From: a virus
Reading direction: 5' to 3' (one strand)
Virus genome (UHGV): UHGV-0134758
DNA length: 29,961 bases
Shown here: in pieces, positions 2,934 through 11,064 of the stretch
Layout of the letters: each line of letters opens with the position of its first letter
Numbering within the stretch: position 1 is the stretch's first letter
Position numbers and translations under genes: made by a program
Notes under the pieces: model-generated
Seen by the model: only the letters and a program-made list of their open reading frames with translations
What the model was told of the DNA's origin: nothing
Database searches by the model: none

Positions 2934-4853
2934 ATGGAACAGTTCAATATCAATAAAGGGGTGACGATCAAGCCTGGGCTTGACGTGCTTCCCCCGCCAG
3001 TGACTGATGATGAATATCGCGCATTAATGGCCGGTGAGGACCGCTATCTGATGACGGAATCCAACACCCTGGAGGAAATCGAGGCTACGTTCTTCTATGA
3101 CACGCCGATCCACTGGTGTGCTACGGATTTACTGGAGGCGATTAGTTCTACTCGTTTGCAGTTACACCGGACCATGCAGGCATTTGTCCGGGCATTGAAC
3201 CAGAAGCTGAATGGCACCGGAATCTCTGCGGGGAGTGATAAAACGGGGGATGTGGCCCAGAGCGGCGCGCGCGCGATCGGCGGTGCTGAAATTGGCCGGG
3301 CACGGAACGTTAACGGGCTGCCGGTCCTGCCAGCCATTATTCCGCTCAGTGATGGTCAGACTATCAGCATTCTGTTTCATAGCCCGACAGCGGAAAACCG
3401 GATCACCAATAGCGATACGCTGGTTGCTTTCCAGTTCTTACTGAATAAAAAAGACGTTACTCACACCGTTGCTCCGATGAGTGGACGTGATATGACGCTG
3501 GCGCAGGTCACCATGAAACTTGCCAACCTTGCAGAGAAAAACTCGGCAAAATTTCAGCGTGCGCAGAAGAAGAAAAAAGCCCTGGTTGATGAAATAACCC
3601 AACTACAGGCTGACAGTGACCAGAAAGAGGATGCCATGAGCGACCTCGCGGATCAGGTGGCAGCGGTAGAAGGGCAGAAGGTAGATCTGGAGCAGAAAAT
3701 TAACGCTGTTGCATCGGAAGCGGATTCTCTTTATGAAGAGAATGAGCGTTTGCAGACGGAGATTGATCAGCTCAATCGCACTGGTGGGCGCGAAACCATT
3801 GCTCCTGCGGGGATGACTGGTGGACACTCTCGCGCGATGACGGATCGCCTTGCAAGTATCAAAAATCGTATGCATATGAACGGGGAAGTGACGCTCAGTA
3901 ATGGTGCATCAATGAAGCAATTCATTGAGGACGGTGAAGGGTATATCCAGTTAACCGATTCGGATGGCAGCGTGTACATGATCAAGGCTAAATCCATACA
4001 GGGTGTGGACATGGCAGAAGCGATCGGCAAGCTGTTTAAAGCCTATAAAGCGGGTAATGTATCGGAATATCTGGTCCAACCAGAAGAACATAAACCGGAA
4101 AACGTCGAACCTGAACCAGCGGAGGATACCGGTAGCTCTTCGCCTGAACCAGAAGTCTCTGTAGGTGCATATCGATATGCCCTGCAAATGCGTCCGGCGG
4201 CCCCTGGCGCAATACCTGAAGGTAACAAAGCAATTCTGCCGCGCCCTGATGAAGGTGACCCGTATTATGAATATGCACGCTACGGCATTGCTACTTACGA
4301 TACCCCGCTTTCTGATCAGCAAATGAGTGAGTACGACCTGAAGTTATTGCCTCGCGAGGATTCTTTCGACTTCCTGGCGAAGACACTTACTAATGGTCCG
4401 TTTGGCAAATATGCACAAAAAGCTCTGGAGCTGGCCACCAGCTCACCAGACGAGTTCCGCGTAATGCTGAAGACTCAGTTTCAAAAAACTTTCCCCAATA
4501 TTGCGTTTCCGGGGGGCGCTGGCACCGAGAAAATGGTGCAGAGCATGATCAATGCATTGCAGGCCGAAGTCGGTGAGATTACTCAGCCAGAACCGGCCCC
4601 GGCACAGCCTGATGAAACGGTTAGCGAAGCAGATGCAGAGGCTAATAAAGCCATTGAATATCTCAATAACGTGATGGATATGCAAAGCACTGACATGGCG
4701 GAGATCCGTAACGCCCGGGGCAATGTCCGGGAAGCGATTGCAGCCCTTCAGGCTGCCGGACGTTTTGAGGAAAACGAAGAGCTGGTTAATGGCGCTGCTC
4801 GCCACCTGGCTGATCTGCTGGTAGCAATCCAGAAAGCGGGGGTAGCGGCATGA
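2934..4853 (+). CDS. darA: DarA-like antirestriction / internal head protein
   Basis: 639 aa, the length I recall for P1 DarA. Start 1 nt after the hdf stop with AGGAAA upstream. Central coiled-coil, acidic Pro/Glu-rich linker. Lies between hdf and two further operon genes as in the P1 dar operon. Confidence 0.75.
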   Translation: MEQFNINKGVTIKPGLDVLPPPVTDDEYRALMAGEDRYLMTESNTLEEIEATFFYDTPIHWCATDLLEAISSTRLQLHRTMQAFVRALNQKLNGTGISAGSDKTGDVAQSGARAIGGAEIGRARNVNGLPVLPAIIPLSDGQTISILFHSPTAENRITNSDTLVAFQFLLNKKDVTHTVAPMSGRDMTLAQVTMKLANLAEKNSAKFQRAQKKKKALVDEITQLQADSDQKEDAMSDLADQVAAVEGQKVDLEQKINAVASEADSLYEENERLQTEIDQLNRTGGRETIAPAGMTGGHSRAMTDRLASIKNRMHMNGEVTLSNGASMKQFIEDGEGYIQLTDSDGSVYMIKAKSIQGVDMAEAIGKLFKAYKAGNVSEYLVQPEEHKPENVEPEPAEDTGSSSPEPEVSVGAYRYALQMRPAAPGAIPEGNKAILPRPDEGDPYYEYARYGIATYDTPLSDQQMSEYDLKLLPREDSFDFLAKTLTNGPFGKYAQKALELATSSPDEFRVMLKTQFQKTFPNIAFPGGAGTEKMVQSMINALQAEVGEITQPEPAPAQPDETVSEADAEANKAIEYLNNVMDMQSTDMAEIRNARGNVREAIAALQAAGRFEENEELVNGAARHLADLLVAIQKAGVAA

Positions 4854-5215
4854 CACTATCAGCTATTGAGTTAATGGATCTCAGCGATAAGTTGGATGCT
4901 CTGATGTCCAAAGCGGCTACCGCGAGTGGCATGGAGTTGCTGGATATCAGCGATGAAATTGACCAGATCATGCAACAGATGGGGTACGGCGCGTCCGGCG
5001 GCAGTAGTGGCGAGGAAAAACAACCTTCGGTACATGATGGTGTGCCAAAACTGGTTGCTGATTTCCTGGCTGATAAATTCGTCGATCAGAGCACAGATGC
5101 ATTTATCGGTACTTTGCAGGACTTGAGTCAATATGTTGGCACATACATCGACCTGGACCAGGTTAAACAGCACACGGCGGCATGGATAGCCGCCAACATT
5201 AAAGAGGCAGCATAA
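4850..5215 (+). CDS. small acidic protein (position of P1 ddrA)
   Basis: ATGA overlap with the darA stop, indicating translational coupling; 121 aa. Positional assignment only. Confidence 0.55.
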   Translation: MTLSAIELMDLSDKLDALMSKAATASGMELLDISDEIDQIMQQMGYGASGGSSGEEKQPSVHDGVPKLVADFLADKFVDQSTDAFIGTLQDLSQYVGTYIDLDQVKQHTAAWIAANIKEAA

Positions 5216-5227
5216 GGCGTAACAGGG

Positions 5228-8221
5228 ATGAGCTTAAGCGATCAGGTGGTAATGGCCACCAGCATAGAAACGCTGATCGAGCTGCTAAAGAACCTGCCCG
5301 ATTATGGGCGGGTTTCGTATGTGGTGACAGCGAAGGGAGACGAGGTAAAAACGGCGTTTGATATCGTCGATGCCTCAGCTCTTTTGGTATCCAATACTCT
5401 GGATGGGAAAATTAATCCTGACTATCCCCAGGAACTTCAGCCGCGCGACCGGACCCGCGCATCCAGCCTTCTTCAGGTTAACCAGATATCCAAAGATTTG
5501 CGGCCTGCTCAGCTTACTGACTCCGGTTTATCCAGCCATGGCGCGCCGATAATTGGTGAGGACAATGCCGTTGAGTCAGGTAATGGGCGGACCATGGGGA
5601 TCATTAAAGCCTATCAGGACGGTAATGCGGATCGGTATCGGGAGTACCTGATTGAACATGCGACCGAATTCGGCATACGGCCTGAAAGGGTTGAATCAAT
5701 GACGGCTCCGGTACTGGTGCGCCGCCGGTTAACGAAGGTTGACCGTGTTCAGTTTGCCAAGGACTCAAATATTTCTGATCTCCAGGAAATGGCAGCCAGT
5801 GAAAAGGCTTTTGTTGATGCCGACAGCATAACTCCGGCGATGATGGCGCTGTTTAACCCGTCAGAAAGCGGAGATCTGCTTAGCCGCAGTAATGACGCGT
5901 TTATTCGCGGATTCATGACGCAAGTTGGTGCCACACAGGCGGCTGGACTTGTAACTGAAGATGGGCGACCAACACGGCAACTTGTTGACCGGATACAAAA
6001 CGCGATCTTTGCCAAGGCATATATGGATGCGCGCCTGGTAAGGATGGTTGCAGAAGAACCTGATCCGGATATGCGTAATGTTCTGACGGCGCTTAATGCG
6101 GCGGCCAATGATTTTGTCCAGATGCAGGCTTTATCAGGAGAAGCGCACAAGCAGGCTGTGACAACCATCGTTGATGGCATTGAAACAGCGGATAGCCTCG
6201 ATAAAAAGGCGCTGGCGGCATTGAAAGATGCGGTAGACCTGGTAAGGCAATCGAAGGAGTCAGGCCAACATATTACCGATGTTATTGCTCAGGGGGATAT
6301 GTTCAGCGAAACAGCCCCGGAAGTGAAAGCTCTCGCGTTGTTCATCGTCGCGAATAACCGTAGCGCGAAGCGTATGGCCACCGCCTTTAAATTGATGGCT
6401 CAACGTATCAATGATGAGTTACAGCACCAGGGCCAGGCGCTGGGGGATATGTTTGGCGGTGGCGATGTGTCGTTACAGGATATCCTTCGCCAGGTGTCTC
6501 AGGAACTGGAAAACGAAGGCATTCAAGGGATATCCGGCGGTCTTTTCGAGTCCGTTTCCGGCGGTAGTTACAACGGTGTTGCTCCATATACCAGTTTGCT
6601 ATTACATCGGGCATCCGGCATCAAAGACATTATTCATCTGATCAGGCTGCTTTCCCGCACAGATCCCCAGGATGAACAGCTTGTACAAGTGCTTGCGCAT
6701 TTTGTTCGAATGCCTGTTGCCGACGTGAAAAAATGGTGCCGATTATTCGGTATCAGCAATTCGTTACTTCGCGGCTTGTTAAATCACGCATCCTCCCTTG
6801 GGCGCGATGGCTTTGACGAGATAGCGCAGGCGATAAAAAACGGAGATATGCCACCAGCTATTGACTGGTTTTCCATTCGCCCAACCAGGGTGAAAGCATT
6901 CCTTAGCGCGGCGCATTCGGCATCACCATTGGCAGAAATGGTTCAGAGGTTGTCGCTCATATTCACAGACCATAGCGCGTTGGGTGATCTGACTCTGGAC
7001 GAGATGAAAGAAGCCTCCATTCAGTGGGCCGATCAACAAAATGAGGTTAACTCAGACTTCTTGCCAGCATTCAGGAAGGCCGTTAGTAAAGTGGATGATG
7101 CCCGTGGAATTCTGAAAGCATTTAAGGCATTGCAAAGTCGGGTTAATAAACATGTCGGTGATATCGATGGGGTAACGGCGGAAGGCAGGGATATCCTAAA
7201 AGAGCACGGCATAACGCCAGAGTTTATTGATGAGATCAGGACTGATATGCAGCGTGAGGTAGTATCGTCCCTGCAAATCGTAGCCAGAGCGTTGGCGGAT
7301 GCTAATCCGAAGAGTGCGGCCATTGTTAACCGGGTTATTGGTGATATTGAAGCATCGGAGGGCATGGGGGCGCTGAAACTTTTCCTTTCGCGAGCGTTTA
7401 ATCCTAACGGCAATATTCTCCCTGGTATTATTGGTGAGGCTAAAAAGTATGCCAGCGAAGAAGAACTTGAGCATCTTGACCAACTACTTAAGCGATTCTC
7501 ATATAACCCGCAGACACGCTGGCAAATGAATCAGCAAAGTATGGGTTCGGTCCACGAGAAAGTGTTATCTGCCATGAACAGTGCGATCGCCAACTCATCC
7601 GTATCTGAAGAAAAAGCTCTTGAGTGGGCCGACTCTTTTATCACGGAAGAAGTGGAAGAAGCCCGCGCTGGACAGAATGGTGGGATAGACCTGCGCAAGG
7701 AACTTGCTGATATTTATCGCCTGACCGGCGGTAAAATTTCGACCTTATCAAAGGTGGTTCACCACCAGGGAAGGGCATATGCAAATCTAAATGGTGTTGT
7801 TGCTGTCAATTTGAACGATGAAAATGCAAGTGCACTGTGGCACGAGCTGGGTCATCATCTTGAGTACAGTAACCCTGGTTTGTTAGAGAAAGCTAAAGTT
7901 TTTCTTAAGAAAAATATGATTGGAGATAAGCCAGCATTTATAAATACTGGTCAAAAGGGGAAAAAAGAGTGGGTTTTAACTTCATGTCTTAGTGATAGTT
8001 ATATGGGAAGAGTATACCCTGATTTTTCGGTAACACGTTCTGGAAAAATAAACTTCAAAACACCCACTATATCAAAAGCGAGAGCAACGGAAGTCTTCTC
8101 TATGGCGCTTCAGTTATATCATGATAAGGAAGCGTTGGCTGCATCGCTTATGAATGGTGACGGATTGGTCGAATTGTTGTTGGGCGTATCTCAGGAGTTA
8201 AACATTGAAAATTCACGTTGA
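5228..8221 (+). CDS. large dar-operon protein (position of P1 ddrB)
   Basis: 997-aa uninterrupted ORF with start 12 nt after the preceding stop. No catalytic motif recognised by eye. Confidence 0.7.
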   Translation: MSLSDQVVMATSIETLIELLKNLPDYGRVSYVVTAKGDEVKTAFDIVDASALLVSNTLDGKINPDYPQELQPRDRTRASSLLQVNQISKDLRPAQLTDSGLSSHGAPIIGEDNAVESGNGRTMGIIKAYQDGNADRYREYLIEHATEFGIRPERVESMTAPVLVRRRLTKVDRVQFAKDSNISDLQEMAASEKAFVDADSITPAMMALFNPSESGDLLSRSNDAFIRGFMTQVGATQAAGLVTEDGRPTRQLVDRIQNAIFAKAYMDARLVRMVAEEPDPDMRNVLTALNAAANDFVQMQALSGEAHKQAVTTIVDGIETADSLDKKALAALKDAVDLVRQSKESGQHITDVIAQGDMFSETAPEVKALALFIVANNRSAKRMATAFKLMAQRINDELQHQGQALGDMFGGGDVSLQDILRQVSQELENEGIQGISGGLFESVSGGSYNGVAPYTSLLLHRASGIKDIIHLIRLLSRTDPQDEQLVQVLAHFVRMPVADVKKWCRLFGISNSLLRGLLNHASSLGRDGFDEIAQAIKNGDMPPAIDWFSIRPTRVKAFLSAAHSASPLAEMVQRLSLIFTDHSALGDLTLDEMKEASIQWADQQNEVNSDFLPAFRKAVSKVDDARGILKAFKALQSRVNKHVGDIDGVTAEGRDILKEHGITPEFIDEIRTDMQREVVSSLQIVARALADANPKSAAIVNRVIGDIEASEGMGALKLFLSRAFNPNGNILPGIIGEAKKYASEEELEHLDQLLKRFSYNPQTRWQMNQQSMGSVHEKVLSAMNSAIANSSVSEEKALEWADSFITEEVEEARAGQNGGIDLRKELADIYRLTGGKISTLSKVVHHQGRAYANLNGVVAVNLNDENASALWHELGHHLEYSNPGLLEKAKVFLKKNMIGDKPAFINTGQKGKKEWVLTSCLSDSYMGRVYPDFSVTRSGKINFKTPTISKARATEVFSMALQLYHDKEALAASLMNGDGLVELLLGVSQELNIENSR

Positions 8222-8759
8222 AGTTCCGCCATGTCATGCGGCCATTGTTGAATACGTTGATGATGCGCCGCTGAAAATTATTTCTGGCGACATCACAGAA
8301 GACATGATAGCGAATGCTATAAATCGGGTAATTCCTGATGAAAGCCTAAAAATAGTTAATACGCTTGATGCACCTGGTGTGCATGTGCTTCTGACATTAC
8401 AGCAGGTTTGTGGATGGAACATATACTGGCCTGGTTGGGATGATGAAGAAGATCTTATTGTCAGAATTAATATTGCCACCCCATTTGGGGAAACAGCGCT
8501 TGTTGAGTATGGCGACGACGAACCGCTAAAAATTATTTCCGGTGATATTACCGAAATCATGATTGAAGAAGCGATCGCTGGTGCAAGTCCTGGAGGTTAT
8601 TTAGGGTTGGTTAACACCCTTGATGCATCTGGCGTAGAGATTCTTCGAACACTGAATTATTTTGCTGGCTGGTTTGTTGATTGGCCTGTGGTTGAGGGTG
8701 GCGATGAAGATGACGACGACGATGATTTGGATATCCATATTGCTCCGTACGTAAATTGA
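8205..8759 (+). CDS. hypothetical acidic protein with internal tandem duplication
   Basis: Two copies of an approx. 55-aa module (AAIVEYVDDAPLKIISGDITEDMIANAI... and TALVEYGDDEPLKIISGDITEIMIEEAI...), then a poly-Asp tail (DEDDDDDD). Start overlaps the preceding ORF by 17 nt. Confidence 0.55.
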   Translation: MKIHVEVPPCHAAIVEYVDDAPLKIISGDITEDMIANAINRVIPDESLKIVNTLDAPGVHVLLTLQQVCGWNIYWPGWDDEEDLIVRINIATPFGETALVEYGDDEPLKIISGDITEIMIEEAIAGASPGGYLGLVNTLDASGVEILRTLNYFAGWFVDWPVVEGGDEDDDDDDLDIHIAPYVN

Positions 8760-8764
8760 ACAAA

Positions 8765-8788
8765 CCCCGCCGATTGGCGGGGTTTGTT
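8765..8788 (+). terminator. rho-independent terminator
   Basis: ccccgcc-gatt-ggcgggg stem-loop followed by tttgtt, 6 nt after the stop at 8759. Confidence 0.7.
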
Positions 8789-9090
8789 CCTAGCGTGCCG
8801 TAAAATACTACCCTTCAGGTTTAATTGACATGGTGTTTTCAATGTTATGCTATAGATTCATTTTGCTTGCTAATTTATATCAAAATTTATTGAACCAATT
8901 GTTGAGTACATTTTAAATCAGCAACTCTTAAATTTTGCTAATTAATTAGTCAGCTATCTATCGCTGTGGTTGATATTAATGTGCTGGTGTAACGTGTTTT
9001 TATATTGTGCTGTTGTCTCTGGTTGCGATTTGGTCTTAGTGTTATTTCTTGCTCTGTTTATTAATCAATTGGTTTACAGTGATGTTTTTT

Positions 9091-9106
9091 TGTGATTTCG
9101 ATCACG
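9091..9106. promoter_or_regulatory. CRP-like site (tgtgatttcgatcacg)
   Basis: Matches TGTGA-N6-TCAC of the CRP consensus in the AT-rich region about 115 nt upstream of the porin start. Hand-counted coordinates. Confidence 0.3.
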
Positions 9107-9218
9107 AAAATATCTCGATTTTTATTTGCAAAACTTGAAACGCAAATCCAAAAACGATAAATATTTCCTCGCAGTGACTTCTTTTCTGTTGAAAAGTTCA
9201 ATCTAAAGGGCAAAAAAA

Positions 9219-10331
9219 ATGAAAAAAATTACAGTGGCACTTTCTACGGTTGCAGCATCTGTTCTGATGGCAATGTCTGCACAAGCGGCAGAAATCTATA
9301 ACAAAGACGGTAACAAACTGGATCTGTACGGCAAAGTTAATGCAGAGCATTACTTCTCTTCTTCAGCTAGTAATGACGGAGATAAAACTTATGCTCGTAT
9401 GGGTTTCAAAGGTGAAACTCAGATTAATGACCAGTTAACCGGTTTTGGTCAGTGGGAGTACGAATTTAAAGGTAACCGTACTGAAACTGAAGGTTCTGAT
9501 AAAGATAAAACTCGTCTTGCGTTTGCAGGACTTCGCTTTGGCGATTATGGTTCGCTCGACTATGGTCGCAACTACGGTGTAGCTTATGATGTTGGCGCTT
9601 GGACTGACGTTCTGCCTGAGTTTGGTGGAGATACCTGGACTCAGACTGATGTATTTATGACCCAGCGTGCTACTGGCGTGGCGACCTATCGTAACAATGA
9701 TTTCTTCGGCCTGGTTGATGGTCTGAACTTTGCTTTGCAGTATCAAGGTAAAAATGATAGTGCTTCAAAAGTGAACAACCCGAAAGGCCGCGAAGCAGTT
9801 GAATCTAATGGTGATGGTTTTGGCCTGTCAGCTACTTACGATTATGAAGGATTTGGCGTTGCTGCAACCTATGCAAAATCTGACCGTACTGATGGGCAGG
9901 TATCCTATGCTAAAAACAGTCATCTGAATGCCTCTGGTAAAACTGCTGAAGTATGGGCTACGGGCCTGAAATATGATGCAAACAACATTTATCTGGCTGC
10001 CACTTATTCTGAAACTCAGAATATGACAGTCTTCGGTGATGATCATATTGCAAACAAAGCGAAAAACTTTGAAGCTGTTGCTCAATACCAGTTCGACTTC
10101 GGCTTGCGTCCGTCCATTGCTTACCTGCACTCTCGCGGTGAAAATATTGGTGCGTTCGGTAATCAGGATCTGGTTGAATACATCGAGGTAGGCACGACCT
10201 ATTACTTCAACAAAAATATGTCCGCTTTCGTTGACTACAAGATCAACCTGATTGATGAAAGTGAATTTACCAAAGCATCTGAGGTTGCAACCGACAACAT
10301 CGTTGCTGTTGGTATGACCTACCAATTCTAA
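9219..10331 (+). CDS. general porin of the OmpC/OmpF/PhoE family (Lc/NmpC-like phage-borne porin)
   Basis: Signal peptide [23 protein letters not shown] then mature [17 protein letters not shown]; conserved blocks GFGQWEYEF and LQYQGKN; C-terminal ...VGMTYQF with terminal Phe. Strongly resembles prophage porins Lc/NmpC from memory. Confidence 0.9.
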
Positions 10332-10486
10332 TTTTGGTAGGTAAGAATATGCGGGAAGGGAGTGATGTCACTGCCCGCATATAGGTGGCACCCTCATGCC
10401 GCCTTTGAAGAGGCAATAAAATTGCCTCTTCTCAATTTAACTTCATGTTATTTATTACCCTTTTATTGATTTGAAACTCTATTGTT

Positions 10487-10513
10487 GGGGCGCTTTATTG
10501 CGCCCATTTTTTT
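10487..10513 (+). terminator. rho-independent terminator
   Basis: gggcgc-tttatt-gcgccc followed by attttttt. A second hairpin (gaagaggcaat/attgcctcttc) lies near 10403-10427. Confidence 0.5.
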
Positions 10514-10539
10514 ACGTAATCGAGCAGCTTCCAGTTCTC

Positions 10540-11028
10540 TCAAAACGGAATATCGTCGTCAAAGTCCATTGGAGGTTCGTTATTGGCGTTGCTCTGAGGT
10601 TTACCTCCACCACTGTATTGCTGGTAGTTTTGAGATTGGTTTGATTGCCCCCAGCCATTTGAGGGCTGTGAATCGTCACGGCGAGCGCCGATCATTTGTA
10701 TGGTGCCGCCCTGGCTGATGATAATTTCCGTCGTGTAACGTTCTACACCGGCGTCATCTGTCCACTTACGGGTTTTAAGTTTCCCTTCGATGTAGACCTG
10801 AGAACCTTTTCGTAAATACTCACTCGCAATTTCAGCAATTTTTCCGAACAAAATGACTTTATGCCATTCTGTTTGCTCTTTCTGTTGGCCTGTTTGCTTG
10901 TCGCGCCATGATTCATTCGTTGCGATGCTGAGTCTTCCGACCGCTCCGCCATTTGGTATATACCTGATCTCCGGGTCTTGCCCCAAGGTACCAATCAGGA
11001 TGACTTTGTTTACACCGCGTTGTGCCAC
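10540..11028 (-). CDS. ssb: single-stranded DNA-binding protein
   Basis: OB-fold N-terminus ([61 protein letters not shown]), Gly/Gln-rich linker and the acidic tail [11 protein letters not shown] start. Confidence 0.95.
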
Positions 11029-11047: not shown

Positions 11048-11064
11048 AAATTTATTAGAGCAAT
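11048..11064 (-). promoter_or_regulatory. C1-repressor operator-like 17-mer, 17/17 to ATTGCTCTAATAAATTT
   Basis: Plus strand reads aaatttattagagcaat, the reverse complement of the P1 C1 operator consensus as I recall it. Sits in the divergent ssb/lyz intergenic region. Confidence 0.55.

Follow-up and report, generated by a model that had tools for sequence, protein, structure and literature searches.

An intact P7-type nmpC porin gene with a CRP-like site and an IpeX-like 3′ untranslated region in a P1-like phage or phage-plasmid

The virus genome UHGV-0134758, a stretch of 29,961 nucleotides that we refer to in its entirety as the window, carries a gene for an outer membrane porin of 370 aa at positions 9219..10331 (+), with a signal peptide encoded at 9219-9287, the mature protein at 9288-10328 and the stop codon at 10329-10331. 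The open reading frame (ORF) lies in a P1-like backbone, between genes of the darA operon (ddrB and a duplicated hxr/odaA-like ORF) and ssb. P1, P7, JL22, RCS47 and SJ46 match 79-86% of the first 25 kb of the window at ~97% identity; the records of P1 and P7 are oriented the other way, so that their minus strand corresponds to the plus strand of the window. An earlier, sequence-only reading of the window had placed a porin gene between the antirestriction operon and ssb, and the identification of ddrB, a 184-aa ORF and ssb as the flanking genes bears this out. The gene forms the centre of a 1.43-kb cassette (9085..10515, +) that comprises a site resembling those bound by the cAMP receptor protein (CRP), a putative promoter, a 5′ untranslated region (5′UTR), the coding sequence, an IpeX-like 3′UTR and a terminator.

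The porin ORF is intact, with an ATG start and no internal stop codons. Its product matches the Pfam model PF00267 (Porin_1) from end to end (model positions 1-337 of 337; E 5.4e-148; 493 bits against a cutoff of 23.7) and exceeds the cutoff of the NCBIfam OmpC subfamily model NF007841 (530.9 bits; cutoff 484), while scoring below both the PhoE and the OmpF NCBIfam equivalog cutoffs. It also matches PHROG 410 over its full length. The N-terminus is a 23-aa signal peptide with cleavage between AQA and AE and a mature start of AEIYNK, a layout identical to the sig_peptide annotated for P7 NmpC, and the C-terminus, as read from the sequence, ends in MTYQF, whose aromatic last residue is a β-barrel assembly signal. 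The complete OmpC-family porin with signal peptide and terminal Phe that had been claimed for this locus is therefore present in full. Alignments to solved chains of OmpC, OmpK36, OmpF and PhoE likewise run end to end (E 1e-105 to 1e-135), and from the ~62% full-length identity to solved OmpC structures it is safe to infer the fold of an OmpC-type 16-stranded trimeric barrel. In the alignment to the OmpC chain 9wcb_A, the PEFGG motif of loop 3 is kept (LPEFGGD), and the constriction residues K16, R37, R74, R124, D105 and E109 are identical (OmpC numbering, counted on the alignment).

Ratios of non-synonymous to synonymous substitution (dN/dS) between this gene and five homologues (those of P7, the E. 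coli Rb-50 chromosome, an Escherichia fergusonii plasmid, PA-2 and ev099) range from 0.07 to 0.14; judged by this ratio of about 0.1, the gene is under purifying selection. The residues that set the allele apart from its closest relatives form two clusters, 183-193 and 232-235, with single changes at 10, 52, 323 and 326. Both clusters fall where porins vary by insertion and deletion in the OmpC alignment, a placement consistent with surface loops L4 and L5. The early coding region also includes CAGTGGC (9232-9238, codons 5-7), the perfect complement of the 7-nt 5′ seed (GCCACUG) of RybB, a sigma-E-dependent small RNA, and E. coli nmpC mRNA has been named among the targets of RybB (PMC3333887). 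The energy of the whole RybB-porin duplex was no better than that of shuffled sequences (p 0.2). Pairing of MicC with the early coding region was considered and rejected as weak, as only six contiguous pairs form with the MicC 5′ end.

The nmpC gene of P7 (AF503408; AAQ07495.1, ‘NmpC precursor’) occupies the same locus, between odaA and ssb, in the same orientation and with the same cassette ends. The two proteins are 95.7% identical, and the nucleotide identity is 94.9% from window position 9086 onwards (93.6-94.9% in the homology blocks). The position of the CRP site, the 5′UTR, the hairpins of the 3′UTR and the terminator are shared. Unlike P7, whose CRP site has no mismatch, the window has one; in addition, the AT-rich stretch of ~300 bp that precedes the cassette is different, the hxr/odaA gene of the window is a tandem duplication (184 aa), and 25 bp are deleted between the terminator and ssb. 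Lambdoid porins, including Lc of PA-2, are 78-81% identical to the window protein, and with these two sets of identities the assignment to phage-borne general porins of the Lc/NmpC type holds. The PA-2 lc and DLP12 nmpC cassettes resemble that of the window in having a CRP site ~120 bp upstream of the ATG, the −35 and −10 blocks and the CGCAGTGAC block, as well as a 3′UTR with three hairpins and a conserved core followed by a terminator; they too are cargo of temperate phages beside lysis genes. They differ in location, since the lambdoid cassette is found between Q and S, facing against late transcription, whereas that of the window lies beside ssb in a P1-like myovirus, and they share only ~73% nucleotide identity with the window cassette. 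Moreover, the P1-type 3′UTR has ~18 nt extra before the terminator, and the CRP site of PA-2 (AGAGA...TCACA) is further from consensus than that of the window.

Among chromosomal porins, the nearest relatives are the OmpD-like proteins of Salmonella, Citrobacter, Enterobacter and Klebsiella (68-73% aa identity). OmpD, OmpC, OmpF and PhoE belong to the same fold family as the window porin, which differs from them in being encoded on a mobile element. Porins of the NmpC type were first found in ompB (ompR/envZ) mutants and are hence OmpR-independent. By the comparisons given above, the window porin is a known gene, P7-type nmpC, in the form of a slightly different allele. Published accounts of P1-like plasmids include the P7-type porin gene (‘ompC/ompD’; PMC6906374, PMC5786510). 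With the gene, the locus and the hotspot all known, the cassette is already known, and the window therefore adds an allele, not a concept.

The interval corresponds to the variable region RD-2 of P1-like elements, a low-GC hotspot whose cargo differs from element to element (Venturini et al., 2019, PMC6906374). The cargo reported there includes ‘P7 nmpC interrupted by IS10’ (PMC6906374), and in a P7-like plasmid with mcr-1 the gene listed between hxr and ssb is ‘ompD’ (PMC5786510). P7, P1-like plasmids and a chromosomal copy share the same sharply defined end points of the cassette. In PLSDB, 502 plasmids have the P1-type ssb-lyz segment, and 113 of these (~22%) have the porin cassette; 112 plasmids cover at least 80% of it. 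The phages JL22 and phi456 also carry the porin gene, and the order porin-ssb-lyz is common to P7, JL22, phi456 and more than 100 complete plasmids. Because ~22% of P1-like plasmids carry the cassette, the porin gene is accessory, neither core nor unique, and the comparison across these plasmids removes the objection that it might be a conserved core gene of all P1-like phages.

The best nucleotide match among the collections searched is to the chromosome of E. coli Rb-50 (NZ_AP025682), with 96.3% identity over 9085..10515. This copy (6001-7430 of the extracted locus L003) is not part of a prophage; its neighbours are a degraded zinc-ribbon gene on one side and an ISEc16 transposase gene on the other, with mtnK/mtnA and pepT nearby. 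Matches to the cassette at 95.8-96.3% were listed for at least 13 E. coli chromosomes. Species-representative genomes contain no porin copy above 81% identity, so no native chromosomal source species was found. The exact porin protein is known only from the window contig and from a 3.6-kb contig of a second assembly (Logan SRR1761716), which is 100% identical over 3642 bp. Insertion sequences (IS) of the ISVsa5/IS10-like and IS3 families interrupt the porin gene in six P1-like plasmid matches and in one chromosome match, and the IS5 copies in nmpC of K-12 and in phage 434 parallel these disruptions of P1-type porin genes.

As the sequence-only reading had stated, the porin gene is preceded by ~430 bp of AT-rich DNA: the 429 bp at 8790..9218 have a GC content of 31.5%, compared with 48.3% for the window as a whole. 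The outer part of this region, a spacer at 8790..9084 (unstranded; 27-32% GC), lies upstream of the cassette and is specific to the window element. A megablast search with it against P7, plasmids and E. coli genomes gave no match, and a more distant search and an alignment gave patchy similarity to P7 and ~80% identity to a few plasmids over part of its length. The inner part carries the CRP-like site TGTGATTTCGATCACG at 9091..9106 (unstranded), which is centred 120.5 bp upstream of the ATG and agrees with consensus at nine of 10 core positions. It is the sole match in the window with one mismatch or fewer, and 0.8 such matches are expected by chance. In alignment, 9091-9106 coincides with a misc_binding feature labelled ‘cAMP receptor protein’ (1363-1383) in the PA-2 lc record J02580. 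In P7 and in the E. fergusonii plasmid the same site is a perfect consensus palindrome, TGTGATTTTGATCACA, from which the window differs by one base. The site thus carries weight because its position is conserved, not because of the motif itself, and the earlier claim of a near-consensus CRP site stands as to location and core but not as a motif exceeding chance. No second, distal CRP-like site with two or fewer mismatches was found at 8700-9300, whereas PA-2 has two annotated sites. For DLP12, the nmpC transcript was reported to be 6.3-fold lower in a cya mutant (PMC4512719).

Downstream of the CRP-like site lies a putative sigma-70 promoter (9135..9163, +), with the −35 element TTGAAA at 9135-9140, a 17-bp spacer and the −10 element TAAATA at 9158-9163. 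From the position of this predicted −10 element we infer a transcription start near 9170, which would place the CRP-like site at about −71.5. This would be a class I position by the criterion for such promoters, namely TGTGA-N6-TCACA centred near −61.5, −71.5 or −82.5. A generic sigma-70 scan upstream of the porin gene found no strong plus-strand promoter. This null result fits an activator-dependent promoter; it also means that the promoter is proposed on its conservation only. That conservation was assessed in an alignment of the upstream regions of eight cassettes (the window, P7, the E. fergusonii plasmid, the Rb-50 chromosome, ev099, Chlobot, PA-2 and DLP12), in which CTTGAAA, GAT-AA-ATTT, CGCAGTGAC, AGTTCA and AAAGGGC are invariant in all eight. 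The CGCAGTGAC block (9170-9178) opens the putative 5′UTR (9170..9218, +), which also holds the Shine-Dalgarno sequence AAGGG at 9206-9210. With these blocks shared with the lambdoid cassettes and the CRP-like site aligned to that of J02580, the proposal that the gene has a regulatory region of its own is upheld.

Control of the porin gene by the C1 repressor of P1 was considered and rejected. The only operator-like match near the porin gene (8883-8899, −) has three mismatches and lies ~250 bp upstream of the putative promoter; it is probably a chance look-alike in AT-rich sequence. A perfect C1 operator is found at 11048-11064 (−), in front of ssb, where it is the known Op ssb.

Downstream of the stop codon, the 182 nt at 10332..10513 (+) are homologous to the 3′UTRs of DLP12 nmpC and PA-2 lc. 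In the DLP12 system, ipeX is reportedly situated after the stop codon of nmpC and before its terminator, and PA-2 lc is said to have an equivalent sequence. On the homology described here, we take it that the 3′UTR of the window porin is an IpeX homologue. The region had been read as containing two hairpins; the consensus structure instead has three consecutive hairpins (10347-10382, 10383-10404 and 10407-10431, +), which are followed by the conserved single-stranded core AACTTCATGTTATTTATTACCCTTT (~10439-10463, +), identified by alignment, and by an intrinsic terminator found by a terminator scan (stem 10488-10505, with a T-run to 10513, +), in an arrangement of the IpeX type. The consensus structure of six such 3′UTR sequences has 33 pairs, of which nine are changed on both sides yet remain paired between the P1-type and the lambdoid clade. 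As two clades amount to about one independent comparison per pair, this evidence of covariation is real but modest. The 3′UTR of the window folds at −65.4 kcal/mol, compared with −42.4 kcal/mol for shuffled sequences (z = −5.8). IpeX of DLP12 and PA-2 is reported to reduce OmpC and OmpF synthesis post-transcriptionally.

A search of the 3′UTRs against Rfam did not return IpeX among its matches. It gave, at 10327-10513 (+), a full-length match to GcvB (RF00022) that scores below threshold (30.6 bits against a gathering cutoff of 42; E 2e-4) and lacks R1. A GcvB identity for the 3′UTR was rejected, since the homologous 3′UTRs of PA-2 and DLP12 have no GcvB match. Local alignment of the 3′UTRs to E. 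coli gcvB was within the expectation from shuffled sequences (p 0.2-0.4); only the remnant in P1 described below scored p = 0.008, uncorrected.

Canonical P1 has hxr-isaB-IS1-isaA at this interval (P1 21,540-24,243) and no porin gene, in line with the sequence-only reading. A profile of the six porin 3′UTRs nevertheless matches P1 (NC_005856) at 4926-4996 of the extracted locus L002 (E 1.6e-4; database 0.2 Mb). The matching scar of ~70 bp consists of the conserved core and the terminator, corresponds to window positions 10432-10513, and lies directly to the right of IS1 (4147-4914 of the same locus). A 9-bp direct repeat, CAGAGGGCA, flanks the IS1, and this target duplication marks the IS1 as a simple insertion. 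In the P1-like plasmid of E. fergusonii, homology to P1 (hxr-isaB) continues up to just before the duplicated sequence and is followed by the AT-rich region, the porin gene and its 3′UTR. It looks as though a loss in P1 removed the upstream region and the porin gene together with the 5′ portion of the 3′UTR, after which IS1 would have inserted at the joint. Because P1 keeps a scar of the cassette, its porin gene looks lost rather than never acquired, and laboratory P1 appears to be a porin-deletion derivative. The description of the site as an insertion hotspot thus agrees with the published variability of RD-2, but in P1 at least the difference is one of loss.

On the darA-operon side, ddrB (5228..8221, +; PF18763) is followed by the 184-aa ORF (8205..8759, +); on the other side, ssb (10540..11028, −; PF00436) is followed by lyz. 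Identity to the P1 backbone is high until ~7894 and again from 10540. Within the 3′ end of ddrB (7894-8221), nucleotide identity to P1 falls from ~97% to ~73%, and the last ~100 aa of DdrB are 67% identical to those of P1. Because P1 identity falls at this point, RD-2 of the window element starts inside ddrB (~7894), so that its divergent block begins earlier than in the published RD-2. The 184-aa ORF stands where hxr or odaA otherwise sits and is a tandem duplication of the Hxr (P1) or OdaA (P7) domain; identities between its halves, and of these with Hxr and OdaA, are 48-57%. The ORF gives two matches to PHROG 2292 and none in a Pfam search, and its 90% protein cluster has only two members. 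A perfect hairpin with a 14-bp stem (GAACAAACCCCGCC/GGCGGGGTTTGTTC), detected as an inverted repeat at 8758..8789 (+), overlaps the stop codon of this ORF and probably acts as a terminator, keeping late transcription of the darA operon out of the porin cassette. An exact direct repeat of 13 nt, TTTAACTTCATGT, has one copy at 7975-7987, in the divergent 3′ part of ddrB, and the other at 10436-10448, in the conserved core of the porin 3′UTR; by a rough estimate, chance alone would give ~0.06 such repeats in 2.9 kb.

Taken together, we consider it probable that the window carries a lysogenic-conversion ‘moron’ cassette of the nmpC/lc type, with its own cAMP-CRP-activated promoter, in RD-2 of a P1/P7-like phage or phage-plasmid. 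In the prophage-plasmid state, host RNA polymerase would transcribe the porin gene from its own weak sigma-70 promoter, and cAMP-CRP bound at 9091-9106 would activate this promoter and give high expression when glucose is scarce. The mRNA would encode a Sec-exported trimeric 16-stranded general diffusion porin of the NmpC/Lc/OmpD group, and its IpeX-like 3′ part may lower the synthesis of OmpC and OmpF by the host. The phage porin would then replace host porins, changing permeability and removing the receptors of other phages and of colicins. In PA-2, the porin swap by Lc replaces OmpC, which is the phage's own receptor. P1 adsorbs to lipopolysaccharide, and the benefit of such an exclusion phenotype would therefore be the host's, in the form of protection from other phages and colicins and of altered permeability.

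Several points weigh against this interpretation. The CRP motif was rejected as a stand-alone statistical signal (one found, 0.8 expected), the proposed −10 element TAAATA is poor, and the AT-rich upstream DNA could be silenced by H-NS. The P1-type 3′UTR is ~30% different from that of DLP12, and the mechanism of IpeX itself is poorly understood. Related porin genes are quiescent or disrupted, by IS5 in nmpC of K-12 and by IS10, ISVsa5 and IS3 in several P1-like plasmids. Finally, a literature search found no functional study of the P1/P7 porin and no expression data for the window cassette or P7 nmpC.

Such observations could be explained if the porin gene were an intact but silent passenger, kept off for example by H-NS on the upstream DNA, giving no benefit to the lysogen and in the course of being lost. 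The GC content of 27-32% upstream, the sigma-70 scan without a strong promoter, the repeated IS disruption in P1-like plasmids and in K-12, the absence of the cassette from P1 and its retention by only ~22% of P1-like plasmids all agree with this, as does the description of nmpC of E. coli B as a ‘quiescent porin gene’ (in a reference cited by PMC3333887). We nonetheless regard it as unlikely, because dN/dS is ~0.1 even between close alleles (synonymous divergence 0.11-0.27), which indicates continuing selection on the protein, and because the promoter blocks, CRP site, 5′UTR and 3′UTR hairpins are conserved across two phage families, with compensatory changes; in addition, transcription of DLP12 nmpC is cAMP-dependent (PMC4512719). 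A role in the lytic cycle, with expression by read-through from the late darA operon or by co-transcription with lyz and a function in lysis or particle release, appears very improbable. The perfect 14-bp hairpin after the 184-aa ORF and the ~430 bp of non-coding DNA that follow would separate the porin gene from the operon with which it is co-oriented (ddrB and the 184-aa ORF). Although the gene adjoins ssb-lyz, and the lambdoid cassette likewise lies beside lysis genes between Q and S, the lambdoid cassettes are oriented against late transcription, and Lc and IpeX are described in the literature as made from the porin's own promoter in lysogens. The chromosomal copy, which is outside a prophage, also retains the same promoter region.

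There is, moreover, hardly any chance that the arrangement arose as an error of assembly, or through the fusion of chromosomal with phage sequence in a metagenomic contig. The contig is of low coverage (NODE_426, coverage 4.2; ENA ERZ1749178), and some E. coli chromosomes have a copy with 96.3% identity, but synteny refutes this explanation: P7, JL22, phi456 and more than 100 complete plasmids all show the same gene order, the sequence runs on into ssb as it does in P7 except for the 25-bp deletion, and the second assembly (Logan SRR1761716) contains the same sequence. The objection of a chimeric assembly, raised at the outset against the phage origin of the gene, is ruled out on these grounds.

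Porins of this type, encoded by prophages, are a standard example of lysogenic conversion. For the specialist, the points of note are that the IpeX-type 3′UTR is conserved between lambdoid and P1-type cassettes with compensatory changes, and that P1 retains a scar. The only grounds for further interest are what the P1/P7-type cassette may do and the fact that phage-plasmids with resistance genes carry it. We put forward, tentatively and with considerable doubt, a broader possibility: that P1-type elements carry a two-part ‘porin swap’ module, in which a CRP-controlled porin of the NmpC type is combined with an IpeX-like 3′UTR that silences OmpC and OmpF, and that this module, found in about one-fifth of P1-like plasmids and, by the P1 scar, apparently ancestral at the locus, could co-determine antibiotic permeability and phage resistance. 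P1-like phage-plasmids are common in E. coli of humans and livestock and spread resistance genes, often mcr-1 or those for extended-spectrum β-lactamases. A module that changes the set of porins, if this proposal is true, would bear on how drugs enter such hosts and on how susceptible these are to phages.

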